64,000 nt of DNA from Promethearchaeia archaeon (GCA_029856155.1 JAHQWL010000023.1:155757-219756); one strand, 5' to 3'; counted from the first letter of the stretch, positions 5,956 through 22,837 are shown. A program made the numbers and translations. The notes: generated by a model from the letters alone, not told the origin.

Positions 5956-6777
5956 TTACCTTCCTATAAACGTTGGATCCCTTTTTTCTTTTAAAGCTCT
6001 TAAAGATTCTCCAAAATCTTTAGATTGAATTGTTTTGGTCCACATTTTGTTTTCTAAATCTAATTGTTTTTCTAAAATATCCCTAAAATAGGTATGGATT
6101 GATTTTTTCATTAATTTAATTGAAAGAGATGGACCCTTAGGGGGAATAAGCCTTAAAGCTTGATCTCTTGCATATGACATTAATTCTTCTTTCGGTAATA
6201 CTTTATTAACGAGCCCTAATCTTTCCGCGTCTTGTGCTGTCAACCGATCACCAAAATAAAATAGTTCTTTGGCTTTATGTATGCCTATCATGAAAGGTAA
6301 AAGAACTGAAGTGGCAAAATCAGGCATAACAGCTCTTTTTATAAAAAATAACGCCCACCATGCGTCCTCAGCCATATAGACTAAATCTGAACAAATTACA
6401 GGAAGTGTAAATCCACCACCTACAGCAAAACCATTAATCACAGATATAACTGGTTTTGGAAAATCCCAAAATTTGAGACACAACCTTTTCGATGCCATAT
6501 CTCTTAAATTGATCTCTTCTATATATTGTTCAGGTATATCTTTCAACATCTCTTCTGAAAAATAACCTCCTGAAGAAAAAGCTCCTGCTTCTTCGCACCC
6601 CGTTAATATTAATACTTTAACATCTTTATCCTTTTCAGCATGATCCACGGCATACCAAAGTTCTAAAAGACCTAATGGAGAGAGAGCATTCTTTTTTGCT
6701 GGCCAGTTTAATATAACTGTTAATATTCCGTTTTCTTCTTTTTGATATTTAATTTGCTTAAATTCTTCAACTAACAT
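5956..6777 (-). CDS. Enoyl-CoA hydratase/isomerase (crotonase) family protein
   Basis: LNWPAKKNAL, AFSSGG, PKPVISVINGFAVGGG, AERLGLVNKV. Start placed at MLVEEF (6777); the track extends to 6801. Confidence 0.9.
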   Translation of the reverse strand: MLVEEFKQIKYQKEENGILTVILNWPAKKNALSPLGLLELWYAVDHAEKDKDVKVLILTGCEEAGAFSSGGYFSEEMLKDIPEQYIEEINLRDMASKRLCLKFWDFPKPVISVINGFAVGGGFTLPVICSDLVYMAEDAWWALFFIKRAVMPDFATSVLLPFMIGIHKAKELFYFGDRLTAQDAERLGLVNKVLPKEELMSYARDQALRLIPPKGPSLSIKLMKKSIHTYFRDILEKQLDLENKMWTKTIQSKDFGESLRALKEKRDPTFIGR

Positions 6778-6871
6778 TAATACAATAAAATCAAAAGACA
6801 ATAAAACATTTTATAAAGAAATTTAATCGTAATCTTTTTTTAACTTATAGCCTCAAAAATATTAATAGACG

Positions 6872-7648
6872 ATGTTATTAGTAGAAAAAATTGAAAAATT
6901 AGCAAACTTAATCCTTGACTCAAATAATATAGTAGCATTGACAGGAGCGGGGATGTCCACTGAAAGTGGAATTGCAGATTTTCGGTCGCCGGGAACTGGT
7001 TTATGGGAAAAAGTAGATCCTTATGAATTTGCTTCGATTCATTCTTATGTAGCTAATCCGAATAAAAATTTGGAATTTATGTTAGAGACCGGAAAAGCAA
7101 TTTTTAGAGCAAGACCAAATAAAGGGCATAAAGCTTTAACTAGGCTTCAAAAATTAGGAAAATTAAAAGGAGTTCTTACTCAGAATATTGATAGATTACA
7201 CCATAAAGCAAGAACGAAAAACATTGTAGAATTACATGGAAATGCATATGAAGCAAAATGTATGACTTGTGGACATGTTTATGAAATAACAGTTATGGTT
7301 AATCAAGTTATGAAAGGAAATTATTCGCCTTCTTGTGAAAAATGCAGAGGAATGTTAAAACCAAATGCAATTTTTTTCGGGGAACCACTTGAGTCAAAAA
7401 CACTCGAAGCCGCAGATAAAATGATTGTAGATTGTGACTTATTATTGGTGCTTGGAAGTAGCTTGGTTGTATATCCTGTTGCTTTTTATCCACAAAAAAT
7501 TCTTTCATTTGGCGCAAAATTAGCAATTATCAATATTCAAGAAACTGATATGGATGCAGCTGCTGAGGTTGTCATCCATGAAAAAATAGGGGACATATTC
7601 CCAGAAGTAGTTAAAATTGTAGAAAATCAAATAATAAAAAACAAATAA
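6872..7648 (+). CDS. cobB: NAD-dependent protein deacylase (sirtuin, Sir2/CobB)
   Basis: GAGMSTESGIADFRS, TQNIDRLH, ELHG, two CxxC Zn motifs, KPNAIFFGE, GSSLVVYP. Confidence 0.95.
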   Translation: MLLVEKIEKLANLILDSNNIVALTGAGMSTESGIADFRSPGTGLWEKVDPYEFASIHSYVANPNKNLEFMLETGKAIFRARPNKGHKALTRLQKLGKLKGVLTQNIDRLHHKARTKNIVELHGNAYEAKCMTCGHVYEITVMVNQVMKGNYSPSCEKCRGMLKPNAIFFGEPLESKTLEAADKMIVDCDLLLVLGSSLVVYPVAFYPQKILSFGAKLAIINIQETDMDAAAEVVIHEKIGDIFPEVVKIVENQIIKNK

Positions 7649-7676
7649 AATAAGAAAAAAATAATTAATTAAAATA

Positions 7677-9392
7677 TTAGCCAGATCTTAAAACTTTTTT
7701 ATCAATTTTTCCAATAACGGTAAGCGGAAGCTCTTCTGAAAATTGAATTAACTTTGGAACTTCATATGGCGCTAAGTTGGCTTTTGAAAATTTTAATATA
7801 TCGTCCTTTAATGCGTCCTTATTTCCATCGAATTCAAAATCTGAGTTAATTTGGATAAATGCTTTAACGATTTCAGATCCAGGTCTATCAGGGTTAGGGA
7901 TTCCAATTAATGCGACCATCCCAATTGCCGGATGTTTTGCTAATGTATCTTCAACTTTTGCTGAAAAAACCTTAAAACCTCCAACAATAATCATGTCTTT
8001 TGTACGATCAACAATTCGAATATAACCATCTTCATCCATTATACCAACATCACCAGTGTGCATATATCCGTCTTTATCTATAGCTTTAGTAGTTTCTTCT
8101 GGTTTATTATAATAACCTCGCATAACTAATGGACCATTTACGCAAATTTCTCCGGGTTCTCCTAATGGAACTACTTCATTGGTTTCAGGATTAACGATCT
8201 TTAAATCTACATTTAAGATTGGCAGACCTACTGTACCCAGTTTTTTCTTACCAATGGAAGGATTCATTGTAGCCACCGGGCTCAGTTCAGTCATTCCATA
8301 AAGTTCTAACAGTTTACCTTTACCTACTATGCTTTCCAAAGCTTCTTGAGATTCTTTTGGAAATGGAGCAGCTGCGGAGATACACAATCTTAAATTTGAA
8401 TGATCTAATCTTTTAAATTTGCGAAAATTGATTAAAATTTGATATAAGGAAGGTACATTTACTAGCATGGTTGGTTTATACTTCTTCATTTCATTACAAA
8501 TATGGAGTGCATCACGAGGATTAGCAATAATAATTTGACTCATTCCATTAAAAAGAGCACCTTGACACACTGTTAAACCAGCAATATGGAATATAGGAAA
8601 TCCTGATAATAAAACTCCCTTTCCTTGTTCCCATTGAAGCCAGGCAATAATACCTTTCATATTTGAAACATAATTTCTATGACTTAACATTGCACCTTTA
8701 GGTGGACCTGTTGTGCCGCCAGTATATTGAATCCAACCAATATCATCGGGGGATATATCAACTTTAGGTAAATCAGCAGAAAATTTAGTTAATACATCAT
8801 CTTGGAAATTATAAACAGTTTTTCCCTCTAATGGAGTGACTTCACCAGAAGGGATTTCCTGAACGGCTTTAATTTTTGCTTGATCTTCTTTAGAAAATGA
8901 ACCGATTACGCTAGTTGCTACTACAACTTTCAGCTGTGGTAATTTATCAGCAATTTTTGTCAACCTATGTTGAAAAATAGCATCTAGAGTGACTAAAGCA
9001 ACATTTTTACCTCCTTTTCCAAGATCATCCAATTGGTAATGCATTTGAACATCAGACATTAAAGGGCTGACTCCTGAAACAATACATCCCGCTTTAAGTG
9101 TACCTAAAACAGAATATACATATTCAGGAATATTTGCTAAATTAATTCCAACTGCATCTCCTTTTTGAAATCCATTTTCAATCAACATATTAGCAAATTG
9201 ATTAGAATATCTATCTACCTCACCAAAACTGATTTCTAATCCCTGATAAGCAAGTGCCATTTTATCAGAAAATTTTTCAAATATTATTCTTATCATTTCT
9301 GGATAAGTAGTTTCAAAATCTTTTGGAGGAATGTCTTCCAAACCAGAATCCCATTTAGCCTTCCAAAAGCGACTTTCGTATGGATTTGACAT
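7677..9392 (-). CDS. Long-chain acyl-CoA synthetase (FadD-like)
   Basis: YTGGTTGPPKG, YGMTE, HTGD, DRTKDMIIVGG, LPLTVIGK. Likely start MSNPY at 9392. Confidence 0.93.
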   Translation of the reverse strand: MSNPYESRFWKAKWDSGLEDIPPKDFETTYPEMIRIIFEKFSDKMALAYQGLEISFGEVDRYSNQFANMLIENGFQKGDAVGINLANIPEYVYSVLGTLKAGCIVSGVSPLMSDVQMHYQLDDLGKGGKNVALVTLDAIFQHRLTKIADKLPQLKVVVATSVIGSFSKEDQAKIKAVQEIPSGEVTPLEGKTVYNFQDDVLTKFSADLPKVDISPDDIGWIQYTGGTTGPPKGAMLSHRNYVSNMKGIIAWLQWEQGKGVLLSGFPIFHIAGLTVCQGALFNGMSQIIIANPRDALHICNEMKKYKPTMLVNVPSLYQILINFRKFKRLDHSNLRLCISAAAPFPKESQEALESIVGKGKLLELYGMTELSPVATMNPSIGKKKLGTVGLPILNVDLKIVNPETNEVVPLGEPGEICVNGPLVMRGYYNKPEETTKAIDKDGYMHTGDVGIMDEDGYIRIVDRTKDMIIVGGFKVFSAKVEDTLAKHPAIGMVALIGIPNPDRPGSEIVKAFIQINSDFEFDGNKDALKDDILKFSKANLAPYEVPKLIQFSEELPLTVIGKIDKKVLRSG

Positions 9393-9656
9393 TTTTTTAT
9401 TCACATTTTCCTTTTGTTTAATACAATTCAAAATCGAATTGTGATATTAAATAAGCTACATTTTATTAAAAAAGTTTATTAAAATTAGCTTTTTTTTTCA
9501 ATCTTAATAAAATTTTTAGAAAATCATTATAATATCTAGAGAAAAGAGAATATAGAAATTAACTTACAATAAAATTCAAAAATAATAGTAAAAAAAAATC
9601 GAAAAAAAAAAAAATAATTATCTCCTTAACGCTGAAACTTATTACATTAATCTTGA

Positions 9657-11372
9657 TTACGATTTTCTCAATAACTTCTTGTCTACTTTTCCAACCACGG
9701 TTAGTGGGAGTTCATCAGTAAATTCAATGATTTTTGGAACTTCGTATGGTGAACAATTTTCTGTTGCAAATGCAATTATGTTTTCTTTTAATGCTTTTTC
9801 GTCTCCCTCGAATTCATAATCAGGTGCTATCTGTATTATAGCTTTTACAATTTCGGAACCGGGCCTATCTGGATTTGGAACGCCGATAGTAGCTACCATT
9901 TCAATAGCGGGATGCTTAGTTAAAGTATCTTCTAATTTTGCGGAAAATACCTTAAAACCTCCTACTATAATCATATCTTTGGTTCGATCAGCTATTCTTA
10001 CATAGCCTTCTTCATCCATTATTCCAACATCTCCAGTATGCATGAATCCATCAGAATCAATAGCTTTTTTCGTTTCTTCTGGTTTATTATGGTAACCTTC
10101 CATAACCATTGGGCCTTTTACACAGATTTCTCCGGCTTCACCTAGAGGTACTTCACGACCAGTATCTGGATCCACTAACTTGAAATCAACATTTGGGAAT
10201 GGTAAACCAATATGTCCTAATTTCTTCTTTCCCCTTGAAGGATTACCCACTGTTAATGGTGAAGTTTCAGTCATTCCATAAAGTTCTATTATCTTTCCTT
10301 TACCAATAACATCTTCAAATATCTCTTGTGATTCTTTTGGAAACGGAGCTGCAGCCGATATTGCATAGTTAATCATATCTTTATCAATTTTTTTGAATTT
10401 AGGGTTTTTTATAATCAGTTGATACAATGTAGGCACGTTTGCCAAGACTGTGGGCCTATATTTTAACATTTCTTTTATCATATGGTTAGTATCTCTTGGA
10501 TTTGGGATTAAAATCTGACTCCAACCTAACATTATTACATTCGCGCAAGTAAATAATCCTGCTATATGGAAGAATGGAAATCCCGATAATCCAAAACCCG
10601 CTCCAAATTCCCAACTAAGCCAGTGCTGGAATATTTTTATATCAGCAACGAAATTTCTATGGCTCAGTTTTGCGCCTTTTGGAGGACCAGTTGTTCCTCC
10701 TGTATATTGAATAAATATAATATCATCTGGAGTTATTTTAACATTAGGAAGTTCATCAGAATACTTTCCTTTAACATCTTTATGATATTCAAGCACAATT
10801 TTTCCTTCTAGCGGTGTCACTTTTCCTTTTGGGATTTTTCCTGCCAATTTTCCAAGCTTAGCTAACATTTTTGGCATAAAGCCACCCACGCTTGTAGTAA
10901 TAATTAATTTTAATGATGGAAGCTTTGTATAAATTTTTGTAATATGTCCCGCAAATATTGCATCCAAAGTGAGAAGTGCTACTTTTTTTCCTCCAGAACC
11001 TAAATCATTTAGTTGATATTGTATCTGAACGGTTGAGAGTAGTGGTGAAACACCAGAAACAATTATCCCGGTCTTCATTGCACCCAGAACTCCAATGATA
11101 TATTCAGGAATATTAGCAACATTTACTCCTAAAACGTCCCCTTTTTTCATTCCATTTTCAATAAGCATATGAGCAAATTCATTAGATAACTTATCCAATT
11201 CTCCGTAAGAAATTTCCGTTCCATAAAAACCAAAAGCTAATTTATCAGGAAGTTCTTCAAAAGTTCTCCGTATTGCTTCAGTGAAAGAGGTTTCGAACTC
11301 TTGGGGATTTAAATCTTTAACATGTGAATCCCAGTTTGCTTTCCAATGCTTATCTTTATAATTTTTTGACAT
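9657..11372 (-). CDS. Long-chain acyl-CoA synthetase (FadD-like), tandem paralogue of 7677..9392
   Basis: Same AMP-binding motifs (YTGGTTGPPKG, YGMTET, HTGD, LPLTVVGK) and clearly collinear with its neighbour. Confidence 0.93.
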   Translation of the reverse strand: MSKNYKDKHWKANWDSHVKDLNPQEFETSFTEAIRRTFEELPDKLAFGFYGTEISYGELDKLSNEFAHMLIENGMKKGDVLGVNVANIPEYIIGVLGAMKTGIIVSGVSPLLSTVQIQYQLNDLGSGGKKVALLTLDAIFAGHITKIYTKLPSLKLIITTSVGGFMPKMLAKLGKLAGKIPKGKVTPLEGKIVLEYHKDVKGKYSDELPNVKITPDDIIFIQYTGGTTGPPKGAKLSHRNFVADIKIFQHWLSWEFGAGFGLSGFPFFHIAGLFTCANVIMLGWSQILIPNPRDTNHMIKEMLKYRPTVLANVPTLYQLIIKNPKFKKIDKDMINYAISAAAPFPKESQEIFEDVIGKGKIIELYGMTETSPLTVGNPSRGKKKLGHIGLPFPNVDFKLVDPDTGREVPLGEAGEICVKGPMVMEGYHNKPEETKKAIDSDGFMHTGDVGIMDEEGYVRIADRTKDMIIVGGFKVFSAKLEDTLTKHPAIEMVATIGVPNPDRPGSEIVKAIIQIAPDYEFEGDEKALKENIIAFATENCSPYEVPKIIEFTDELPLTVVGKVDKKLLRKS

Positions 11373-11655
11373 TTCTATCCAATCCTTTTTTATTTTTAAA
11401 ATTTTAAAATTATAAGATTCATATTATACATTACTAATTATAAAGTTTGATTTTAGTCATCCTCTATATTTCCAGATATGCATAAATGTACATATTCAAT
11501 TTGTCGCCCACAAGATATATTCAAAAATTTAATATACTCTATTTTTACTTTTAATCTCCCCTCTCTGTCTCCATGAAACAATGTTTCTTTTAAAAGAACA
11601 CTTTTTCTTGAAAACAGAAATGATATTACTATACTAAGGAGAAATTGCATGTATT

Positions 11656-11685
11656 TTAGAAAATTGTCGGTGTATCTTTGTTTTA
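11656..11685 (+). promoter_or_regulatory. Upstream motif TTAGAAAATT-N5-TGTAT-N5-TTTTA, copy 1 (radA-like gene)
   Basis: Same blocks and same spacing as the copy at 16311-16340. Confidence 0.55.
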
Positions 11686-11710
11686 TTTTGAAGAATCCTT
11701 ATCCCATGTG

Positions 11711-12478
11711 ATGACATTCGAAGAATCGTTACTCTCATATGACGATGGATTTAAGGTGTTTAAAAGGAACAATCACTTACCACTCATTTCAAGCGGGGAT
11801 AGCACACTAGACAAGTTGCTTTCTGGGGGATTTCACCGAGATTTAGTGTATTTGCTCTATGGAGATAAGAAACTAACGACTAATATTTTATTAACAACGG
11901 CGGTTATTGCCCAAAAAGCTTTTAATAATGGAGGTTTTGGAGAAAATATTAGGGTTGCCTTCATCGATGGAAACAATCGTTTTAACCCCTATAATGTAAG
12001 CAAGTTCGCGGTTTCACAGAATTTATCTCCTCGGAAAGTACTAGAAAACATTCTTATTTCACGAGCGTTTACTTGGGATCAAATGGTTGAAATTTTGGAG
12101 AACAGGCTTTCCATGCTTGAAGATGTGAAAGTTGTATTAATTTCAGGGATTACAACAATGTTTGAGGGCTATGAGAAACAGACTTTCGAAGATTTACTAA
12201 GAACAATAGATGGAATCAAACAAATACTCTGTAAGACAAAACCTCTCATTATTATAACGGCACCTTTACACGAACATTCCCTTTTCAGACCAAAGGGGGG
12301 AAAAATTCTATCGCATTTTGGAAATGTATTAGTGATGATAAATGACGATGAAAGATTTAGCGAATATGTTTTAGTACAGCACCCTTACTTGCCTGAAAAA
12401 AGGTTGCGAAAGTGGAAAACCCGTGCACCCAAGAAAAAAGTGCCTTTAAAGAATGCGACGATAGATTACTGGTTTTAA
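11711..12478 (+). CDS. RadA/RecA-fold protein with degenerate Walker motifs (PolB2-associated, ImuA-like)
   Basis: ISSGDSTLDKLLSGGF RadA N-terminal signature, AFIDGNNRFNPY, LENILISRAFT. Walker A reads YGDKKLTT and Walker B VVLISG. Likely start ATG 11711; the track uses TTG 11678. Confidence 0.85.
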   Translation: MTFEESLLSYDDGFKVFKRNNHLPLISSGDSTLDKLLSGGFHRDLVYLLYGDKKLTTNILLTTAVIAQKAFNNGGFGENIRVAFIDGNNRFNPYNVSKFAVSQNLSPRKVLENILISRAFTWDQMVEILENRLSMLEDVKVVLISGITTMFEGYEKQTFEDLLRTIDGIKQILCKTKPLIIITAPLHEHSLFRPKGGKILSHFGNVLVMINDDERFSEYVLVQHPYLPEKRLRKWKTRAPKKKVPLKNATIDYWF

Positions 12479-12483
12479 CTATA

Positions 12484-12897
12484 TCACCAAAAGGCTTTTT
12501 CAAATTTATCTATGGTGTCCTGTAAACTATCTTTAATATGATTTTCGAAATCAGCAAAGATACTTATATCATTATCCCAATTATTAAACATTTCTTTTGG
12601 ATATAAAATAAAGAATTTATCTACAATCCTTTTAATTTCTTCATTTACTTTTTTCTCCTTAGTTTTTTTCGAAGAATTTACAATAAATAATATTCCATGG
12701 TGTTTCGTAATAATATATTTTTTATCTTTTAGCTCAAAATTAGATAAACCTCCTCTTTCTAATTCTTCTGCCAATAGATTCAACGCAGACATTAATGCTC
12801 CAAATAATTGTTCATCTACTTTTTTATCAAAAACACGGTGATATAAGACAGCTCCAGCATCATTTAATATCCAAATATCTTGTATTACTTTTTCCAT
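12484..12897 (-). CDS. Longin-like domain protein (Asgard type)
   Basis: IWILNDAGAVLYHR...LFGALMSALNLLAEEL...ILFIV...IVDKFFILY...DISIFADF matches the longin/sedlin beta-beta-alpha-beta3-alpha2 pattern. Confidence 0.7.
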   Translation of the reverse strand: MEKVIQDIWILNDAGAVLYHRVFDKKVDEQLFGALMSALNLLAEELERGGLSNFELKDKKYIITKHHGILFIVNSSKKTKEKKVNEEIKRIVDKFFILYPKEMFNNWDNDISIFADFENHIKDSLQDTIDKFEKAFW

Positions 12898-12996
12898 AGA
12901 AATCACAATTCAATAAATACTCATTAACTTTAAAGTTAATTAAGAAAAAATAAATATAAAATATTTAATGTTTAGTTTTTAAAAAAGTAATATTTA

Positions 12997-13731
12997 TTAT
13001 TCACTAGATTTTGGTCTAATATATCCATAATATGCTCCAAAAATTCCGACTATGGCAGAAATCCACGCCAGATAATAAAATACGGTAAAACCAAGGCTAC
13101 CTAAAAAGATAAATACTCTATCGACTGCAAAATTGAGAAATATCAACATAAAACTAAAGGACATAATTGCTAATGATAAAAATGCTTGTTTATAGGTTTT
13201 CTCATCTACTGCTCGATAAGATTCTATTGATCTTCTTAGAAATGGGGCGTAGACCATAACCATATATATAAAAACTATTAAGAACGCAATAATGTCTAAT
13301 AATGTATTACCGTATTCATAGATGATTAAAACGTATACACAAGCAAATATTCCGTATACTATTGTGATATATTTTTGAAGGGCATTATATCCCTTTTCAA
13401 ATACATTCACTTTTAATATATAGGATAAGAAAATAGCAACAGTCACGAAGAATTCGCTTATTCTAAAATCAGTTATTATATTGTACATCCAAGCAATAAT
13501 AGAACCATCTTGTACAACATTCAACTGTGAAACTACAAATACTTTTGATGTCCAAGAAAATAAAATTGCTAGAAAATAGTTTAGGAAAATTATTAAAAGC
13601 AACCGAGTGAGTTTATGACGCTTAATGAAGTACTTTTTTAATATAAGTATTAGTAAAACACCAGCAAATATGATTATAAAAAGTTCAAAGATCATACCAA
13701 TAAAATTTAGAAGAATAATTAATTCAACCAT
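12997..13731 (-). CDS. Seven-transmembrane-helix membrane protein
   Basis: Seven hydrophobic segments counted by eye, ending GAYYGYIRP. Likely start MVELII at 13731. Confidence 0.7.
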   Translation of the reverse strand: MVELIILLNFIGMIFELFIIIFAGVLLILILKKYFIKRHKLTRLLLIIFLNYFLAILFSWTSKVFVVSQLNVVQDGSIIAWMYNIITDFRISEFFVTVAIFLSYILKVNVFEKGYNALQKYITIVYGIFACVYVLIIYEYGNTLLDIIAFLIVFIYMVMVYAPFLRRSIESYRAVDEKTYKQAFLSLAIMSFSFMLIFLNFAVDRVFIFLGSLGFTVFYYLAWISAIVGIFGAYYGYIRPKSSE

Positions 13732-13974
13732 AATAAATAAATATGCACTCCATTTAATATATAAAGTTTTATTTTTAGAAATACAGAATAGCTTTATTAA
13801 TAAACTAAAATCCCGAGTGTTCCTTATCATTATATACCTTATAGCTTATCAAGTTAATAGTATCTGTTTTAAAATCGAAATTGTTCAATATTTAAATGTG
13901 AATAGCTTTTAAGTAATGTGAAATATTTTTATATAATCTATTGAAAAAACGAATTTTCTTAGAAGTGAAGAATT

Positions 13975-14343
13975 ATGGACATGAAGGTTTTTAAAAAAAC
14001 TTTTAAATTTATCTGCGGTGAATGTGGTAATTTTTCGACAACACAAACGGAATATTGTGAGAAATGCGGAGCAAATGCTGTGAGGCAAGCAACACACGAA
14101 GATTATTCAAAACGTGAAAAAGAGGGGAAAGCCGGGATCGCTGAGAGGAGAACTAAGATGAGAGCTGAGGATAAAGCTGAGAAAGCAGAGGAGAAAGCAG
14201 AGGATAAAGCTGAGAAAGCAGAGAAAGCAGAGAAGAGAGCTGAGGAGAAAGCTGAGAAAGCAGAGAAGAGAGCTGAGGAGAAAGCTGAGAAAGCAGAGAA
14301 GAGAGCTGAGGAGAAAGCAGAGAAGAAAGCAGAAGAAACTTAG
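13975..14343 (+). CDS. Zinc-ribbon protein with C-terminal A/E/K/R low-complexity helix
   Basis: CGECG...CEKCG followed by AEEKAEKAEKR repeats. Confidence 0.75.
   Translation: MDMKVFKKTFKFICGECGNFSTTQTEYCEKCGANAVRQATHEDYSKREKEGKAGIAERRTKMRAEDKAEKAEEKAEDKAEKAEKAEKRAEEKAEKAEKRAEEKAEKAEKRAEEKAEKKAEET
14163..14335 (+). repeat. Purine-rich 33-bp coding tandem repeat built from 9-12-bp sub-units
   Basis: gctgaggagaaagctgagaaagcagagaagaga repeated in tandem. Confidence 0.9.
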
Positions 14344-14440
14344 TTATTTTGATATCGCATTTGAACTTATTTTTTGTATGATCTGTGATAGTTTAGATAT
14401 TTTAAGAGGATTAATCATCTATAAATTTACTTAAAAAAAC

Positions 14441-14860
14441 CTATTCTTCTTTTTCCTTTTTTTTATATAAATTAGGATCTTTTTTTTCAAGTATTAAACG
14501 ATCACCACCATATCGAGCTTTTCTTCCATGATAGTAGAGTTTAGATTTCTCATCACAGATTTTATTCCATTCCTCTAATCCTAACTTTTGTATCATAACA
14601 GAATTATACACTTTAGAATTATGAGGTTTAAAGATTTCAAAATTTACAATTGGTTGCAACATTTCGCAAGGGAAATCAGCACATTCATAGCAAAATTCGT
14701 ATCCTTTACCCGTGACGCATTCATAAGTTTTACAATCTGGGAACTTGAGAATTTGACCTTTTAAATCTCGACATCCTTTACAACCAAAAGAATCTACACC
14801 AGGGCATCTCTTACAATAAATTCCACAAGGAGCATGCCATTTTTTTAAATCTTCAGTCAT
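14441..14860 (-). CDS. Cys-rich DUF3795-like protein
   Basis: APCGIYCKRC...CKGC...C...C...FCYECADFPC cysteine pattern. Confidence 0.8.
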   Translation of the reverse strand: MTEDLKKWHAPCGIYCKRCPGVDSFGCKGCRDLKGQILKFPDCKTYECVTGKGYEFCYECADFPCEMLQPIVNFEIFKPHNSKVYNSVMIQKLGLEEWNKICDEKSKLYYHGRKARYGGDRLILEKKDPNLYKKKEKEE

Positions 14861-15080
14861 AAATAGTTCCTTTTCTAAGTAGATCTATCATTAGATTAAA
14901 GTGTAAAAGAATTATTTAATTTTGTCTTTAAAATGTGATTTAATTTGTTTTCAAATTTCAGTTTTTATGAAAACATTTATATAGGTAGTTTATTAATATA
15001 TTCTTGGAGTTTCTAAACTTCAAATTATATGAAGAATTAAAAAATAAAATAATTTCCTTCCAAATGAGGTGATATTAAAA

Positions 15081-15221
15081 GTGAATTATTTTTTATATCC
15101 TAAGGGAGATGTAAAAAAATGCAAATTTTGCGAAGGTAATGCTATAATATATGTTTGGAGGAGTGATTTAGAAGATTTTGATGAGATAATGTGTCCAGAA
15201 TGTACCGAAAATGAAAAATAA
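15081..15221 (+). CDS. 46-aa zinc-finger microprotein (below the ORF-track cutoff)
   Basis: GAGGTGA SD at 15066 then GTG at 15081. Translation MNYFLYPKGDVKKCKFCEGNAIIYVWRSDLEDFDEIMCPECTENEK, with CxxC...CPxC. Confidence 0.65.
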   Translation: MNYFLYPKGDVKKCKFCEGNAIIYVWRSDLEDFDEIMCPECTENEK

Positions 15222-15236
15222 TCCATACAATTATAT

Positions 15237-16208
15237 TTAATTTATATTAAAAAATCTAACTGCATTACTATAGAGCCATTTTTCCTTTACTTTCTCCTTT
15301 AAGGGGAGTTTCATAACTTCATCTGCTAGTTGTTTTATTGATAATCCCATAAAGAGCCAAGTGGAACCAAAAAGGATCTTATCTTGCAAAACCGTATTAC
15401 CAAAATGCATTAGAGGTTCCCATCCTGTTCCTTGCATACTTAGGTATTTAGGTAAGTAAGAAGCAATATCAATATAAATATTGGGATTACGCCATGCAAC
15501 AGCGACCATTTCATTTACCCAAGGCCATCCTCCATGTCCAGCGATTATCTTTAATTCAGGAAATTCTTGAGCAACAATATCAAGATAAATTGGGCGTTCA
15601 ACCGCCATAGTATTTGTTGAGTAATTAATGGACATATGAAACCATATAGGAATATCCAATTCCACACATGTAGAATATATCGGATACATTCTTTTATCAG
15701 TAGGTCGTATCTGAAACATAAAAGGTCTAATTGCAATCCCTCTAAGACCTATCTCATATGATCTCTGTATTTCTTGAACAACCTTCTTTTTTTTCAAGGG
15801 ATCAATCCCAGCAATTCCTATGAATTTATCAGGAAATTGATTTACTATTTCTGCATAATAATCATTTGAAAGTCCCGCAATACCACTAGGAGTCTCTTCA
15901 TCTAAATTAAAAATTACTGCTTTTTCTACTCCCATTTCGTTGAGTTGTTCAACAAAATCTTCAATAGACATGGATAATTTCTTTATTTTAGGTATAAGTG
16001 GCTTAATTGCTTCCTTGAGTTCAGATGTATTAAGAGTTGATTTCATTTTATAAAGTTCTTCTGGTGTAATACCTAAGATAGGAGCGACTCTTGGACCAAA
16101 AATATCTTTAAGATATCTTGCCATTTGCGGAGGTAAAGAGACTAAAAGATTTATAAACACTTCTTCGGTAGGAACATAACAAAGAGAATCAATGATTTTA
16201 TAACTCAT
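15237..16208 (-). CDS. Amidohydrolase family 2 protein
   Basis: IPIWFH, LKIIAGHGGWPW, NIYIDIA, KILFGS, WLYSNAVRF. Confidence 0.88.
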   Translation of the reverse strand: MSYKIIDSLCYVPTEEVFINLLVSLPPQMARYLKDIFGPRVAPILGITPEELYKMKSTLNTSELKEAIKPLIPKIKKLSMSIEDFVEQLNEMGVEKAVIFNLDEETPSGIAGLSNDYYAEIVNQFPDKFIGIAGIDPLKKKKVVQEIQRSYEIGLRGIAIRPFMFQIRPTDKRMYPIYSTCVELDIPIWFHMSINYSTNTMAVERPIYLDIVAQEFPELKIIAGHGGWPWVNEMVAVAWRNPNIYIDIASYLPKYLSMQGTGWEPLMHFGNTVLQDKILFGSTWLFMGLSIKQLADEVMKLPLKEKVKEKWLYSNAVRFFNIN

Positions 16209-16310
16209 TAATATCCCGCTTTTATTATTCTATACAATTATTAGAAATAATAATTAAAGATTGTATTTATTTAGAATGAATAAATCAAATGAAATAGATC
16301 GTCGCAGAAA

Positions 16311-16340
16311 TTAGAAAATTTGTAATGTATTCTCCTTTTA
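16311..16340 (+). promoter_or_regulatory. Upstream motif TTAGAAAATT-N5-TGTAT-N5-TTTTA, copy 2 (polB2 operon)
   Basis: ttagaaaatt tgtaa tgtat tctcc tttta, matching 11656-11685. Confidence 0.55.
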
Positions 16341-16391
16341 ATGTGCCGAAATACTTACTTTCTGGATTCTAACAGAATCGGATGTGAAATA

Positions 16392-16664
16392 ATGGGTAGA
16401 ACTGTACCTTCTTTTAGACCTGCCTTGGAGCATGAAATCGAAAGCTGGAAGGACTTCAAAAGGGCGTTACGTCCTGAAGAACAGAAGATATTTGATAAAT
16501 TGATGAATTTTGCTCGAATACACGCTGATGCTGGTAGCATGAGTGCACGTCCAATGCTATCAGAAGTACTATTCATCTCCTTTGCAGTTGAACAAGAAAA
16601 AAAAATCGAAGTATTAGAAAAGAAGGTAAAAGAATTGGAAGAAATGATAAAAGGGAAAGATTAG
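16392..16664 (+). CDS. Small alpha-helical protein typically encoded directly upstream of polB2 (arCOG07300-like)
   Basis: MGRTVPSFR...WKDFKRALRPEEQKIFDKLM..ARIHADA signature, ending 3 bp before polB2. Likely start 16392. Confidence 0.82.
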   Translation: MGRTVPSFRPALEHEIESWKDFKRALRPEEQKIFDKLMNFARIHADAGSMSARPMLSEVLFISFAVEQEKKIEVLEKKVKELEEMIKGKD

Positions 16665-16667
16665 AGA

Positions 16668-19076
16668 GTGGATTTTCAAGATCAATTCGACGGTTGGCTT
16701 TTAGATGTTTCTACTTATAGTGGTGGAGTAATTCTATGGGTGAAAACAGTAAAAGAGCAAAAGATTGTAAATATATTCCATGATTTCCACCCCGAGTTTT
16801 TTGCCGTGCCAAAGCGACATGTTGGCAAAGATTTCAAGAGATTAAAACAGATCCTTAAATCCCATCATAATGTAAAAGGTGTGAGAATCTGTGAAAAATA
16901 TGTGAAGCTAGAGGATCATGAAAAAACAAAAATATTAGGAGTTTCTGTAGTAAAACCATCAATTTTTAAGAAGACAATAAAAGAAATCGATAAAATTGGT
17001 CTTTTTACATTGTACAACACCGATCTTCCGATATCTCAGATGTATTTCTATACGAATGACTTATTTCCCATGTCTCTTTGCAGTTTCAGGGTCAAATGTG
17101 AAAATAAGAGAAGAACTGGAGCACCCGCTATGCGTTTGAGATCATTAGAATTAAATGATAATAATGAAGAACTGTTTTACGACTTACCTCCTCTAAAAGC
17201 TGTGTGGTTGGATATAAAAGTACAGCAGCATGGGATGAGGTCATATTACAATGATCCATTGCTATATGCAGAAGTCAGTATTGTTGAAAAAGATAAGAAA
17301 GCCAACATTCCAAGGGCAGATGGACAGAGAAAAAGAAAGATTCTAATCGATAAAGCTGATGAAGCTGAAACCATTAAGACCATCAGTAAGGTGATTGAGC
17401 GATTGGATCCTGACATTATATTAACACATGGAGGAGATGAATTTGTATTTCCTTACTTAGCAGCTCGAGCATCAGTGAATCAAATATCAAAAGAACTATA
17501 TTTTTCTCGAACACGAACACCACTTAGAAATTGTATCTTTAATCTTTCAGGAAACTCAGATCACTATATGTCTTATGGGATAATAATGCGACGCTCTAAA
17601 ACGCAAGTCTACTTTACGGGGCGTTTTCATTTAGACACTACAACTTATGGTAGTTTACATTTTAGTGAGGGTAATATACCAGGAGTTATTGAAGTTGCAA
17701 GAGTGTCTCGAGTTCCGATGCAAAGGTTATGTAGAGTAACAATTGGGGGTGCTCTTCAATCAATACAATACTATAATGCATATAAACTAGATCACCTTAT
17801 CCCACCTTTCAAAAAGAGCCCAGAAGGTTTTCGAAGTGGTATGGAGTTGATTACAAATGATCGAGGGGGTCACATTTTTGAACCCTTAATTGGAGTCTAT
17901 GATCAAGTGGTAGAATTAGATTTTTCAAGCATGTACCCCTCTCTAATGGCAAACTTTAATATTTCATCGGAGACGATTAATTGTAAGTGTTGTAAGGATG
18001 ATGGAACAGGAATTAAAGTACCTGGCACAAATTTCCATATATGCACAAAAAGGGAGGGAATTATCTCAAAATCAATTAGCCTGCCGTTGAGAAAACGTTT
18101 AGAGTGCAAAGAATATAACAAGACACATGATGATCTACGGTACAAATTCACGGATATTGCTTTAAAATGGGTACTCGTAGTAAGTTTTGGCTATTTAGGA
18201 TTTAAAAATGCTCGCTTTGGCAAAATTGAGGCTCATCAAACAGTCTGTGCTTTTGCGCGTGAGTTTTTATTGAGATCTGCTGAGATTGCTAAAAAATATG
18301 GTTGCAAAGTCGTTCATGGGATTGTTGACTCAATGTGGCTTCAAGACACAAAAGGAAGAACTCCAGAAGAATTTGAGAATGTCACTATAGAAATCGCAAA
18401 TTTGATCTCTGAGCAGACTCGAATTCCAATGAATTGGGAAGGGAGATATAATGTGATTGTGTTCCTTCCATCTCGTGCTGAGCCTGACGTACCAGCGCTT
18501 AGTCACTATTGGGGTATAAAGAGTAATGGAGAATTGAAAGTAAGAGGTATTGAAGTAAGGCGTAGAGATATGCCAAAAATTGTGAAGGATGCGCAATATG
18601 CATTCATTGATATATTTCAAGGTGCAGAGACCGTTGAAGAGTTTTTAGAAAGAATTCCAAAAGCAAAGAAAACACTCTATGATTATGTAGAAAGACTATA
18701 CTCTGGTAAAGTATCCCGTGATGAGCTTACAATTCGTCAAAAAATATCTCGTAAACCTTCCCAATATAAGGTAAATTCATATCAAGCAGTTGCGGCTAAG
18801 CAGTTAGAACGATCAGGCGTCATTGCGTCAGCTGGAAAGAATGTAAGATATATTATCCTTAACGCTGATGCTGATCCAAATTTTCCTGAAAAAAAGGTCA
18901 TACTTTCAGATTTATATGATGAGAAAAAGCATGGATACGATAGAAAGAAATATGTTGAATTACTGAAAAGAGCTTTTGAAAACATTTTTCCTTTTGAATT
19001 CCCAGAACTTGAGGAATTAATATCATCAGATTATAATAAGAAGTCTGTTCAAAAAGATCTTTCTTGCTTTATTTAA
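16668..19076 (+). CDS. polB2: Family B DNA polymerase, PolB2 (Dpo2) subfamily, proofreading-deficient
   Basis: Motif A LDFSSMYPS, INCKCC, motif B KWVLVVSFGYLG, motif C HGIVDS (instead of YGDTDS), KVRGIE.RRRD. Exonuclease motifs are degenerate (WLDIKV, GGDEFVF). Confidence 0.93.
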   Translation: MDFQDQFDGWLLDVSTYSGGVILWVKTVKEQKIVNIFHDFHPEFFAVPKRHVGKDFKRLKQILKSHHNVKGVRICEKYVKLEDHEKTKILGVSVVKPSIFKKTIKEIDKIGLFTLYNTDLPISQMYFYTNDLFPMSLCSFRVKCENKRRTGAPAMRLRSLELNDNNEELFYDLPPLKAVWLDIKVQQHGMRSYYNDPLLYAEVSIVEKDKKANIPRADGQRKRKILIDKADEAETIKTISKVIERLDPDIILTHGGDEFVFPYLAARASVNQISKELYFSRTRTPLRNCIFNLSGNSDHYMSYGIIMRRSKTQVYFTGRFHLDTTTYGSLHFSEGNIPGVIEVARVSRVPMQRLCRVTIGGALQSIQYYNAYKLDHLIPPFKKSPEGFRSGMELITNDRGGHIFEPLIGVYDQVVELDFSSMYPSLMANFNISSETINCKCCKDDGTGIKVPGTNFHICTKREGIISKSISLPLRKRLECKEYNKTHDDLRYKFTDIALKWVLVVSFGYLGFKNARFGKIEAHQTVCAFAREFLLRSAEIAKKYGCKVVHGIVDSMWLQDTKGRTPEEFENVTIEIANLISEQTRIPMNWEGRYNVIVFLPSRAEPDVPALSHYWGIKSNGELKVRGIEVRRRDMPKIVKDAQYAFIDIFQGAETVEEFLERIPKAKKTLYDYVERLYSGKVSRDELTIRQKISRKPSQYKVNSYQAVAAKQLERSGVIASAGKNVRYIILNADADPNFPEKKVILSDLYDEKKHGYDRKKYVELLKRAFENIFPFEFPELEELISSDYNKKSVQKDLSCFI

Positions 19077-19095
19077 TTTAAATAAAAAAAAAAGA

Positions 19096-19635
19096 TTATG
19101 GGATTAGAAGTATCTGAAAAAAATCTAGAATTATTGCTACTAAACAGAATAATTCTAATAATATCCAGAGATTTCGTTTTAAACTTCTTAATGCGCTTAG
19201 TGGTTTACCAAAGTAGTTTATTAAGTTATATATGAAGATAATTACCCAAGTAGTGCCCAGAAAAATAATTGGAAGTAATAATGCAGTCAATTCATGACCA
19301 ACATAGTTTAATAAGTATTCATAACCTAGTATTGTAAATCCCATTATTATAAGAGTAAAACCAAGCCCGAATGAGTATTCTGCAAAAGTTACAAATCGGT
19401 TAATGCGTTCTTCTGAAACTTCTTCTAGATTGGCTTCGAATGCAGCCTTAGAATTAGCAGATACAGAATTAACAAAGAAAATAAATGATACCATCAGTAA
19501 AAATGTTGCTGTAACTATTCCACTAGGAGGCGCAACTTGCCAAATTAAAGCAAGAATCGTTAGAACTGCACCAATCATGACAGTACTTAATGTAATCCAA
19601 TCCTTAACATTAATTTTCTGTTCTTGATTACTCAT
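19096..19635 (-). CDS. Hypothetical membrane protein (about 5 TM)
   Basis: Five hydrophobic segments; no recognised motif. Confidence 0.75.
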   Translation of the reverse strand: MSNQEQKINVKDWITLSTVMIGAVLTILALIWQVAPPSGIVTATFLLMVSFIFFVNSVSANSKAAFEANLEEVSEERINRFVTFAEYSFGLGFTLIIMGFTILGYEYLLNYVGHELTALLLPIIFLGTTWVIIFIYNLINYFGKPLSALRSLKRNLWILLELFCLVAIILDFFQILLIP

Positions 19636-20008
19636 TTTCTTATAAGTGTAATTTTTATGTGATTAAAATAACTAAAATCACAGTATTTCAAAATTTTAAT
19701 ATTAATTAATGAAAAATGAAATCATAATAAGAATAAAAAAGTAATTAGAAAGGTTGCCTTATGATTGTCTTCATATTTTCTGGTTTCGTTCTTCGAGGAT
19801 CACTGAGATAAATCTCATGATGTTTTTTATCATGACCATCAAAAGATCACTCTTAAATATCTTTATTAAATTAATTTTTTTGTGCTTTTGTCACGTATTA
19901 TAGAATATAAAACTTAAATCTAAATAGACAAATTTGTATTATTTTGATGGATATTAGAAAACTGATACACTGTATTAATTTATTTTCATAAAATACAAGT
20001 ATAAAATT

Positions 20009-20167
20009 ATGTCAAAAGCACTTTCCTATTATGATTGGGAATTATCATTCAAGAATAAAAATGAACCTAAAAAGAATTTGAAAAATGATAATTTCAATGC
20101 TATTGGTATATCTGAAATTAGTTTTAAAGATTTTATGAATAAATGGAAAAAAGAGAATCTTTCATAA
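20009..20167 (+). CDS. Putative 52-aa small protein
   Basis: Open frame MSKALSYYDWELSFKNKNEPKKNLKNDNFNAIGISEISFKDFMNKWKKENLS in an otherwise empty intergenic gap. Confidence 0.45.
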   Translation: MSKALSYYDWELSFKNKNEPKKNLKNDNFNAIGISEISFKDFMNKWKKENLS

Positions 20168-20245
20168 ATTTCAAGCTTGTTTTTTAGAGATTTTAATTAT
20201 CGATTTATTAATTGAAAATGATATTTTACTATATTTTAATTAACC

Positions 20246-22837
20246 CTATTCAATTATATCGTATCGGTTAAAAAGTTTAACGATTAGCTTAACAAACCAA
20301 AAATATTTCTTTGAAATTTTACTAATTAATGTATTTAAAAATGGCATACCATCATCAGCTTTAGATGGGAGATTCCTCTCAAAATCAGGCCAACTTAGCC
20401 CACCAGTTGCCTTAGGAGGTTTACCAAAACTTTTTACATTTTTCCAGTCATTTCCATTAGGTGTTGACCCTAACCATGTTTTATCTGTTTTAATAAAAAT
20501 TAATTCTTCTGATTTTAATTTTATAATTCCCAATACATTAATCGGTCCTATCCCTCCAATATAATCAAAATTTTCAATAATAATCAAATTCTCACCTTTT
20601 CTAATAAAATCTTTAATATTAAAAATCTGAATATTTTTTTCAATCCCAACAAAATTTAATGTTCTTCTTGTAATTACATGACCAATATATTCATTATTTA
20701 TATAAATTTTAGCGAAACTCCCCGCGATTACTTGTAAGTAAGCGTGATCGATTTCTTCGTCAATATAAATATCTTTTTTATAATAGGTTTTATGCGCTTC
20801 ATGGATCTTATTCGAATCTAGATAAATTAGTTCACTAGGGATGTTAGGATCTTCCCATTGACTATTAGTTCTAAGTTCATTTAATTTGTCATCATAAAAC
20901 TTTAATAACCATAAATATTTCTGCTTAATTGACTTAAATCCCTCTTTCCTAGAGCAATTTAGCCATAAAATTTCATACTCATTTAATAAATCTGTTAAAT
21001 ACTCCTTCAAATCTTCAATTTCTTTTATCAATCGATCTTTACGATTTTCATCTTTTTTAAAAATATATTCAATAGACGTTTTTGAATTAATCCTTTTTTT
21101 ACAATAAAATTTTAAATGCTTGGCAATAAAAGCAAGATTTCTAATATTTACATTATTTTTAGGGATGATTTTTTCCAGATTTTCGCATTTTTCAATTATA
21201 GCTTCCAAATCAGAAATTAATTTTTCATAACCCTTAGTTTTTATACTTTTTTTGTATCTAGAAGTTTTTTTATTAAAAGGATGAGCGAAAAAATGATTGT
21301 AATACCCCGAAGGTCTTGTATGCAATAAATTTTTATCTTGTATTAATCTAAATTTGCTAAATATTTCTACTAATCGGTGATCATCTATTCCAAAAAAATG
21401 AATAAATAATCCTTTCCAAAATTTAAATTTATTAATTTCTTTAAGAGGGTTCCAACCTACCATAGCAGAGAAAATAAAACCATAAATTCTATTCTCTCGA
21501 ATTTCTTTGTTTCTATAATCACCCCAACTTGATGTAATTTCTCCAATTGCTCCTTTCTCATAACCATATTTAAGTAAATACGAAATATTTTGTTCATATT
21601 TATCAATTGATGGAAAAATTCGATTAAAATCCATTATTGAAGGACTAACGATTATTGGAAAATCAAATTTTTTAACTTTATCCAAAATAGGATGCGTTTT
21701 CTTTACATTATACTTCCAGTATAATATAATCATATCTTTAGGTAAATTTTCGAGAACCTCCTTAAATTTATAAAGAACATCATGATAGATAATAACTTTT
21801 TGATATCCATGCTTTTTTACAATTTCATATACTTTTTTATAATGCTTTAGGTAAGCATTTCCAAGACCGACCTCATCAATATACGACTTTGAATTTACTT
21901 TACCAACATCTTCACTTTCATCGGCTCCTATATGAAAATAATCAGAAGTAAAAACTTCACTCAATTCACCAATCATTTTATCTAACATTTCATAAATTTC
22001 TTCATTTGCAATATTTAAGCTATTTGAACCTTGAAATTCTCCATACTTCCAATAATTAGGATTTTGCAAAGTATTATCCCAGTGTCCTATAGTTTGGAAA
22101 ACAGGAATTACTTCAATAAACCATTTTTTTGCAAAATCAATTAATTCTCTTATCTCTTCTTTAGAATATGCTCCTCTATCTTTCCCGATATCGGGATAGT
22201 TTTCAAACTTAAACATATCTAGCATATAAACCAAATAATATTGATTTATCTTATAATGACTTATGATTTTAATGAATTTCTTTAAATTTTCAATTTTAGG
22301 TGCTTGACCTCTTGAAATATCATCAGAAATACCACGAATTTGTAAAGAAGGAAAGTCTAATATTCCTAAATTAATTAATGAAAATTTATCTTGAGCTGAG
22401 TTTAATAATTGAATAAAAGTCTGCACTCCATAGAAAATCCCTTGTAATGAATTAGCTTCTATAATTACTTTAGAATCTCTAGAGATTAAGAGATATCCTT
22501 GATCTTTATAAATCTTATTCGTTTTAACTTTATTATAGAGTGATTCTGGAAAAACAGATATACTATTTTTTAGAAATGATTTTATTTCTAGATATTTCTC
22601 ATGATCTTGGACTTCAACAACATCTATATTCTTCTTTAAACCAGAAGATCTTAACGAACTGTGTATCTGTTCAATAAAATAATTACTTTTTTCTGTTAAA
22701 TCTGTATAAAATTTTGAAAATTCATTAATTTTCATTCTTTGAGAATTAATTATTTTAAGGTATTGAGGGGAAGGAATTAACAATAATTCTTCCTGCGTTC
22801 CTTGAGTTTGAATTAAATTATCTAAATAAAGAAACAT
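20246..22837 (-). CDS. Glycoside hydrolase family 20 (beta-N-acetylhexosaminidase) with C-terminal beta-sandwich domain
   Basis: [41 protein letters not shown] and catalytic FHIGADE. Confidence 0.9.

Follow-up and report, generated by a model that had tools for sequence, protein, structure and literature searches.

When the operon of a multi-protein DNA polymerase is interrupted by unrelated genes, do the separated parts still form one system, and are they still made together? The question is raised by a stretch of DNA of 64,000 nucleotides (nt) from a Promethearchaeia archaeon (GCA_029856155.1 JAHQWL010000023.1:155757-219756), referred to here as the window, which is AT-rich (about 31% G+C) and belongs to a genome of 4.1 Mb in 104 contigs with 97% completeness. 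On its plus strand the window encodes an inactivated RadA-like protein, iRadA (11711-12478), and further downstream the small protein PPB2 (16392-16664) followed by the B-family DNA polymerase PolB2 (16668-19076). Between the iRadA stop codon and the PPB2 ATG lie 3,913 nt. A preliminary description, made from the sequence alone, had proposed that the separated halves remain one co-regulated, PCNA-anchored translesion complex. We consider it probable that the three genes encode a Lokiarchaeial PolB2 mutasome whose operon was split, and whose halves are still controlled together and still yield an assembled, PCNA-docked complex.

According to the proposed scheme, this Lokiarchaeial (Promethearchaeota) mutasome would consist of PolB2, a trimer of PPB2 and one iRadA, and would extend primers past lesions and mismatches after DNA damage, as expected from established work on the family. 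The ancestral iRadA-PPB2-PolB2 operon has been split between iRadA and PPB2 by gene insertions in this genus, both halves bearing a copy of one bipartite element located 5 nt before a TATA-like box. A single sequence-specific factor would control both promoters, so that the three proteins would be made together and would still assemble, with iRadA and PolB2 docking on homotrimeric PCNA via C-terminal tails resembling PCNA-interacting peptides (PIP-like tails). At the level of sequence and comparison, the earlier interpretation is supported.

iRadA, PPB2 and PolB2 across the gap

The open reading frame (ORF) of iRadA opens at a TTG at position 11678; the likely start is the ATG at 11711, with a possible GTG start at 11708, and the stop codon ends at 12478. 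The predicted protein has 255 amino acids (aa), and an identical 255-aa protein is present in the database. It matches Pfam Rad51 at 4e-16, and the NCBIfam models for RadA, Rad51, Dmc1 and RadB match it far below their cut-offs. In the alignment with P. furiosus RadA (1pzn), the GSGKT of Walker A is replaced, the site reading YGDKKLTT, and the Asp of Walker B is changed to Ser (VVLISG). About 100 N-terminal residues of the genome's canonical RadA have no counterpart in iRadA, which corresponds to the RadA/Rad51 ATPase core without the N-terminal helix-hairpin-helix domain. Its AlphaFold2 (AF2) model, with a pLDDT of 87.8 and about 15 disordered residues at the C-terminus, gave RAD51, RadA and DMC1 cores as top Foldseek matches (E 1e-18, TM 0.74-0.77). 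The genome possesses five RadA paralogues, of which iRadA is the only inactivated one, the other four keeping GKT and the Walker B Asp. This bears out the RadA-like gene with broken Walker A and B motifs noticed in the preliminary description.

Close homologues of iRadA carry source labels of Promethearchaeota/Loki-type Asgard metagenome-assembled genomes (MAGs). Relatives with 84-92% identity are labelled Hodarchaeota, Thorarchaeota, Hermodarchaeota, Heimdallarchaeota or Promethearchaeota, and some of these MAG names must be wrong, since the labels conflict. A partial second copy of the iRadA 3' end was found within the gap of one genome of the genus (locus L013, G005:C29:23598-23798). It covers residues 190-256 at 88% identity, PIP-like tail included, and looks like the footprint of a local rearrangement.

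PPB2 is a protein of 90 aa of the arCOG07300 type, most likely starting at the ATG at 16392 (MGRTVPSFR...) and not at the upstream ATG at 16341, with the stop codon ending at 16664. A comparison of 17 sequences from 8 genera showed no variation at M1, G2, R3, T4 and R9. In the AF2 model (pLDDT 83) the protein is entirely helical, with helices at residues 8-17, 20-24, 28-43, 45-50 and 56-89, the last being a long C-terminal helix. A specific fold match was rejected, as the search returned unspecific helical chains only, with a best Z of 5.6; a SigR fragment (1h3l_B) at rank 9 (Z 4.7, root-mean-square deviation 3.5, 65 residues aligned) was tied with many unrelated helical chains.

PolB2, of 802 aa, begins with a GTG at 16668, 3 nt past the PPB2 stop codon, and PPB2 adjoins PolB2 in the same manner in all 20 co-assembled genomes of the genus. 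The protein matches Pfam DNA_pol_B (2.8e-26) and DNA_pol_B_exo1 (1.1e-12) as well as archaeal PolB structures in PDB (4e-41); its best NCBIfam matches are PRK05761-type archaeal PolB models, below their cut-offs, and its assignment to the PolB2 group is based on the domain matches together with the catalytic-site substitutions. It is the only PolB2 of the genome, which also encodes one other PolB on another contig and a Y-family polymerase.

In motif C of PolB2, HGIVDS aligns with YIDTDG of Pfu Pol, so that the first Asp is lost and the second is kept (I-V-D for D-x-D). The 21 PolB2 sequences compared all share HGIVDS, and the Asp of motif A, the second Asp of motif C and many positions in the palm and fingers do not vary among them either. 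At Exo II, also aligned to Pfu Pol, Asn is replaced by Gly and Asp by Val, and the DxE of Exo I reads DIK, a site that is not conserved across genera; the decay of the exonuclease is read from these two motifs, with Exo I assigned by eye. The MGRTVPSFR protein and the exonuclease-dead PolB2, described earlier as lying 3.9 kb downstream on the same strand as the RadA-like gene, were thus found as stated.

The losses of the first motif C Asp and of the exonuclease residues could also mean that PolB2 is catalytically dead and that the trio acts at forks in a structural or regulatory way, with no translesion synthesis; Makarova 2014 read such proteins as inactivated (PMC4104785). Against this stand the invariant catalytic Asp residues of motifs A and C, the many invariant palm and finger residues, and the case of Dpo2 of S. 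islandicus. Dpo2 has Ile for the first motif C Asp (IID, compared with IVD here) and is a damage-induced and active extender of mismatches and lesions that is required for targeted mutagenesis (PMC8764526, PMC7390963). We regard a dead polymerase as very improbable.

A cluster of Cys residues (N-C-x-C-C ... C) was observed between motifs A and B of PolB2 (residues 438-459), invariant in 21 sequences from the order. Some of these residues align with a disulfide pair of Pfu Pol, and a metal site could be formed by the additional ones.

The gene for iRadA is not in one operon with PPB2 and PolB2, being 3.9 kb off with opposite-strand genes in between. Because four of the six inserted genes are antisense, a single transcript is very unlikely and the halves would be separate transcription units. 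The membership of iRadA in the family rests on orthology rather than adjacency, given that orthologues in seven related genomes are part of contiguous clusters.

Synteny had been named as a check on the preliminary description. Within the genus, iRadA, PPB2 and PolB2 have the same order and strand in 20 of the 20 co-assembled genomes, and the conserved flanks are also the same. The distance from the end of iRadA to the start of PolB2 varies from 0.8 to 7.4 kb across the genus, and the insert between iRadA and PPB2 from 0.5 to 7 kb. Elsewhere in the order, seven genomes possess a contiguous iRadA-PPB2-PolB2 cluster, which includes the best iRadA homologue of each. In one genus of the order, iRadA overlaps PolB2 and copies of PPB2 are located elsewhere. 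In another, the trio is dispersed over more than 1 Mb, with PolB2 at 3.00 Mb, iRadA at 3.30 Mb and PPB2 at 4.18 Mb in a closed genome; the dispersed iRadA-like proteins also lack Walker A and B, and have terminal PIP-like tails. From these contiguous, partly split and dispersed arrangements, we conclude that the contiguous operon is ancestral and has been repeatedly fragmented in the order.

Comparison with genus orthologues gave ratios of non-synonymous to synonymous substitution rates (dN/dS) of 0.075 for iRadA, 0.049 for PPB2 and 0.061 for PolB2, with dS >1. All three genes are under strong purifying selection. The conserved order and strand, the sister-genus iRadA genes in contiguous operons and the similar constraint (dN/dS 0.05-0.08) point to one system, as had been proposed.

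Predicted clamp docking and assembly

A basic linker leads into the tail of iRadA (12452-12475), which reads NATIDYWF directly before the stop codon. In 20 of 20 genus sequences the last eight residues of iRadA follow the pattern N-x-[TM]-[IL]-D-x-W-[FVI], and in other genera x-L-D-x-[FY]-h is found at or near the end of the protein. Similar to iRadA, PolB2 ends with a PIP-like tail, QKDLSCFI before the stop codon (19050-19073), and all 16 intact genus sequences retain the eight-residue Q-x-x-[LIM]-x-x-[FY]-h pattern with small deviations; most other genera have tails of the type Q/x-x-L-D-x-[FYW] on PolB2. A single PCNA gene was found in the genome, from which a homotrimeric PCNA with three pockets is expected. 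We infer from the tails that both iRadA and PolB2 would dock on PCNA, in line with the anchoring predicted earlier, and the presence of two tails raises the possibility that a single PCNA ring is occupied by the complex at two of its sites.

Binding of iRadA to PolB2 was modelled with ESMFold2, using residues 1-740 of PolB2, iRadA, the alignments of each protein and three controls. The pair scored 0.57, compared with 0.01 for the best of the three controls, a result graded as weak support and given without an interface. The runs agreed in at least 53% of contacts, and the pLDDT of the partner was at least 77. The mark for binding was reached by 58 of 80 solved complexes and by 2 of 110 mismatched pairs; at scores of 0.60 or below, the passing pairs comprised just 7 of the 80 solved complexes together with both of the mismatches. 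Given the strong prior from the family, the score is mildly favourable to binding. The proposal that the proteins form a complex gains weak support from this fold-based result for the iRadA-PolB2 pair.

A promoter element in front of both halves

Upstream alignments across the genus revealed a shared architecture in front of iRadA and PPB2, consisting of a box 1 (TYAGAAAAYT), 5 nt, TGTAY, 5 nt and a TATA-like T/A run. In the iRadA promoter (11656-11689, plus strand), box 1 at 11656-11665 is followed by the spacer GTCGG, TGTAT at 11671-11675, 5 nt and the TATA-like box TTTTATTTT at 11681-11689. Position 11656, from which the preliminary description had the system begin, is not a gene start, and corresponds to the first base of box 1. 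In the promoter of PPB2 and PolB2 (16311-16344, plus strand), box 1 is at 16311-16320, TGTAT at 16326-16330 and the TATA-like box at 16336-16344, with a spacer on either side of TGTAT. Box 1 begins at -55 in front of iRadA and at -81 in front of PPB2. The iRadA mRNA is probably leaderless or nearly so, since only about 21 nt separate the TATA-like box from the ATG. The corresponding distance for PPB2 is about 47 nt and includes the Shine-Dalgarno-like GGATGTGA.

The promoter block of iRadA is nearly invariant in 18 genomes of the genus although synonymous sites are saturated, which means that conservation of the element reflects selection. Upstream of PPB2, conservation starts exactly at box 1, whatever the neighbouring gene. 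The exact bipartite pattern has two matches in the 8.2 million positions of the genome (both strands), at 11656 and 16311. In a non-circular test, 36-nt matrices built from one promoter in other genomes were scored against the other promoter here over 8,191,904 positions: with the matrix from the iRadA promoters of 18 other genomes the PPB2 promoter ranked 5th, and with the matrix from 17 other PPB2 promoters the iRadA promoter ranked 4th. Across 41 genomes of the genus, the pattern gave 60 matches, compared with 7 for a reversed control. The iRadA-type spacer is found in 28 of the 60 matches and the PPB2-type spacer in 23; the other 9 are located elsewhere, at about the control rate. Among about 6,000-14,000 positions, the genus matrix ranked 1st-4th upstream of the operon in three other genera, the sites lying at -54 to -64 relative to the start codon, and the same holds upstream of the dispersed PPB2 in a fourth genus. 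A dedicated sequence-specific factor is suggested by the confinement of the element to these promoters. The co-regulation proposed earlier is in agreement with an element that is present on both halves and was found nowhere else in the genome.

A different explanation would be that the split uncoupled iRadA, which would then act alone, for instance in recombination or fork processing as a RadA paralogue that binds PCNA, with PPB2 and PolB2 working without it and the likeness of the promoters being a relic. The separation of the trio in parts of the order, either with PPB2 away from iRadA and PolB2 or with all three genes more than 1 Mb apart, speaks for such uncoupling, as does the PIP-like tail that iRadA has of its own. 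However, order and strand are kept throughout the genus and the constraint on iRadA matches that on its partners. With synonymous sites saturated, a relic promoter would have decayed, yet both copies keep their boxes and spacing. We regard uncoupling as improbable.

Several observations weigh against a split mutasome with jointly controlled, assembling halves. In four genomes of the genus, iRadA was found but neither PolB2 nor PPB2; in three of these the contig ends 1.1-1.4 kb from iRadA, in the direction in which PolB2 is expected. Base composition leads to an expectation of about one chance match of the exact pattern per genome, and the argument depends for this reason on location, conservation and reciprocal ranks. 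Whole-genome scans with matrix and pattern found no further convincing sites of a wider regulon, and, judged from its distribution, the element defines no broad damage regulon like that of Sulfolobales. Co-regulation is read from cis-sequence alone, the PIP-like tails are short motifs, and the binding test of iRadA and PolB2 is weak and lacks an interface. The element could also be a promoter that was duplicated at the split and kept only for basal strength.

In this last case the halves would be co-expressed constitutively, and the element would be a strong basal module and not a damage operator. It abuts the TATA-like box, no regulator gene was found near the locus, and the box is absent from the promoters of the Y-family polymerase, PCNA, the four other RadA paralogues, the other PolB and two Orc1/Cdc6 genes, all of which fits a basal module. 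A generic module would nonetheless be expected at many genes, whereas the element is confined to two; several genera of the order also share it in front of the operon, and in the archaea examined to date, all of them Sulfolobales, PolB2 operons are induced by DNA damage (PMC7390963, PMC11791011). A purely basal module seems unlikely.

If a single factor controls both promoters, the arguments for and against its being damage-responsive are about evenly balanced. A further-reaching possibility, which we put forward tentatively and consider rather doubtful, is that the box of about 35 bp is the operator of a dedicated damage-responsive regulator conserved across the order. The regulon would then be held together in trans, and the mutasome genes would be free to drift apart, as with the 3.9 kb here and the more than 1 Mb in the sister genus with a boxed PPB2.

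A close precedent is the damage-response element of Sulfolobales, with ANTTTC in a 20-bp consensus bound by Orc1-2 (Sun 2018, PMC6061795). Similar to the element described here, it is short, non-palindromic and located just upstream of the core promoter of damage-tolerance genes; it lies at -23 to -55 from the ATG, compared with the -55 and -81 at which box 1 begins. The reverse strand of box 1 contains ATTTTC, which fits ANTTTC and may serve as a lead only. The orientation, however, is opposite, and the rest of the 20-bp consensus has no match. The element here is bipartite and serves two promoters, whereas that of Sulfolobales serves a regulon of dozens.

Three Orc1/Cdc6 paralogues are encoded in the genome, on other contigs. 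The promoter of the third (L047:2200-2291, G000:C81; L048-L070) contains a genus-conserved palindrome, GTATAA-6 nt-TTATAC, the centre of which shares an 8-nt core with box 1. This paralogue is a possible candidate for the regulator and a lead only, as a match of eight nucleotides carries no weight in AT-rich DNA.

At 11531-11625, 85-180 nt upstream of the iRadA ATG, a second block of non-coding DNA is conserved. A stretch rich in pyrimidines is followed there by the palindromic core CTTTTAAAAG and then by an inverted repeat (TTCYT...ARGAA), in which the differences between genomes appear to be compensatory. The unlinked iRadA genes of two other genera are likewise preceded by a pyrimidine-rich stretch resembling this one. 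The block has no Rfam match, and a search for RNA families in 9000-21000 found none.

The mosaic insert and the relation to known mutasomes

Six supported genes were found between the halves (12484-16208), four of them on the opposite strand, where the preliminary description had counted seven unrelated ones; other small ORFs overlap these genes, on one strand or the other, and are unsupported. The candidates at 11453-11650 (minus), 13625-13912 (plus) and 13909-14097 (minus) were rejected as shadows of conserved DNA or of opposite-strand genes. The supported genes encode a longin-like protein of 140 aa (12484-12906, minus), matching Pfam Fuz_longin_1 with 26.2 bits against a cut-off of 26.1; a multi-pass membrane protein of 277 aa (12997-13830, minus); a Zn-ribbon protein with KAEKAE repeats (13975-14343, plus); a DUF3795 protein (14441-14860, minus); a conserved mini Zn-ribbon of 50 aa with CxxC...CPEC (15069-15221, plus); and an amidohydrolase (15237-16208, minus).

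None of these cargo genes is universal in the 20 genomes of the genus. Each is missing from some genome that bears the trio, and the genes found in their place are unrelated; additional subunits encoded by the cargo were ruled out on these grounds, and the six genes are placed outside the system. In one closed genome of the genus the spacer is just 508 nt and holds only the 50-aa ORF. Other genomes carry instead a gene for GH20, an EEP-family protein, a glycerol-3-phosphate (G3P) acyltransferase or a Fer4-HEAT protein in the gap. A protein of 682 aa encoded in the gap of one genome of the genus (L022:3676-5724, G018) has an endonuclease/exonuclease/phosphatase domain (Pfam 2e-19) and is the only DNA-repair-like cargo seen.

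The 50-aa ORF is present in 15 of 24 genomes of the genus, in every case between iRadA and PPB2 and in the same orientation; in four genomes the PPB2 promoter follows it directly, and one copy is interrupted by an in-frame stop. No copy was found in other genera, and the ORF, absent from several genomes of the genus, appears specific to it. The gene of the Zn-ribbon protein with KAEKAE repeats follows iRadA directly and on the same strand in several genomes. It is fast-evolving, with a dN/dS of 0.23 and 45-65% identity, compared with 80-90% for its neighbours. The genes of the longin-like and membrane proteins (12484-13830) are gained and lost in the gap as a unit; longin and roadblock-type proteins are typical 'eukaryotic signature' genes of Asgard archaea.

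The association of PolB2 with arCOG07300 and an inactivated RadA was reported by Makarova 2014 (PMC4104785). Timinskas, Timinskas & Venclovas 2025 named PPB2 and iRadA, and modelled a PolB2:PPB2(3):iRadA pentamer in which a PolB2 loop contacts the oligomerisation groove of iRadA and the MGRT arm is inserted in the cleft between PolB2 and iRadA (PMC11791011). The trio described here shares with this mutasome, known from S. islandicus and other archaea and bacteria, the three families, the gene order iRadA-PPB2-PolB2 and the clamp-binding tails. In both, PolB2 has lost the first motif C Asp and its exonuclease is decayed, PPB2 has the MGRT arm with R3 and R9, and iRadA is a RadA core that lacks the N-terminal domain as well as Walker A and B. 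The proposal of a new Asgard analogue of the Imu mutasome therefore does not stand, as the trio is the published PolB2-PPB2-iRadA system. Differences are found in the operon, which is broken here by 3.9 kb and six unrelated genes, an arrangement called rare in PMC11791011, and in the copy of the promoter element on each half, promoters not being treated in that study. Clamp-binding motifs occur in iRadA or PolB2 and rarely in both within one species (PMC11791011), whereas both proteins have PIP-like tails here. The host is an Asgard archaeon, and the terms 'Asgard' and 'Lokiarch' are absent from the main text of PMC11791011.

The Pol V mutasome of E. coli (UmuD'2C-RecA-ATP) follows the same logic, an error-prone polymerase being joined by a small oligomeric accessory protein and by one subunit with the recombinase fold, together with a motif that binds the clamp (PMC11791011). 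Its polymerase is of the Y-family and not the B-family, and LexA controls the system; the RecA subunit comes from a filament of the cell's active recombinase, in contrast to the dedicated dead paralogue of the present system. In the bacterial ImuA-ImuB-DnaE2 (ImuC) system, which includes the RecA-like ImuA, a clamp-binding adaptor recruits an error-prone polymerase without proofreading. There the polymerase belongs to the C-family and the adaptor ImuB is an inactive Y-family protein, whereas here a B-family polymerase is found together with PPB2. We know of no homology between Imu proteins and PPB2, and the likeness is an analogy only.

The trio itself had been described, and what is new here is the Asgard host, the genus-wide split with a variable insert, the twin promoter element and the double PIP-like tails. 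The known mechanism is unchanged, and its range is extended. PolB2 is the polymerase behind damage-induced mutagenesis in Sulfolobales, and its holoenzyme has so far only been modelled. The locus offers a natural experiment in which the operon is broken, yet linkage, constraint and a promoter element found at no other gene persist. To our knowledge, nothing is known of how Asgard archaea regulate damage tolerance; the short and well-delimited element makes this regulation testable and gives a handle for finding the regulator. If it is the operator of a dedicated damage-responsive factor, it would be the first defined damage-response cis-element of Asgard archaea.

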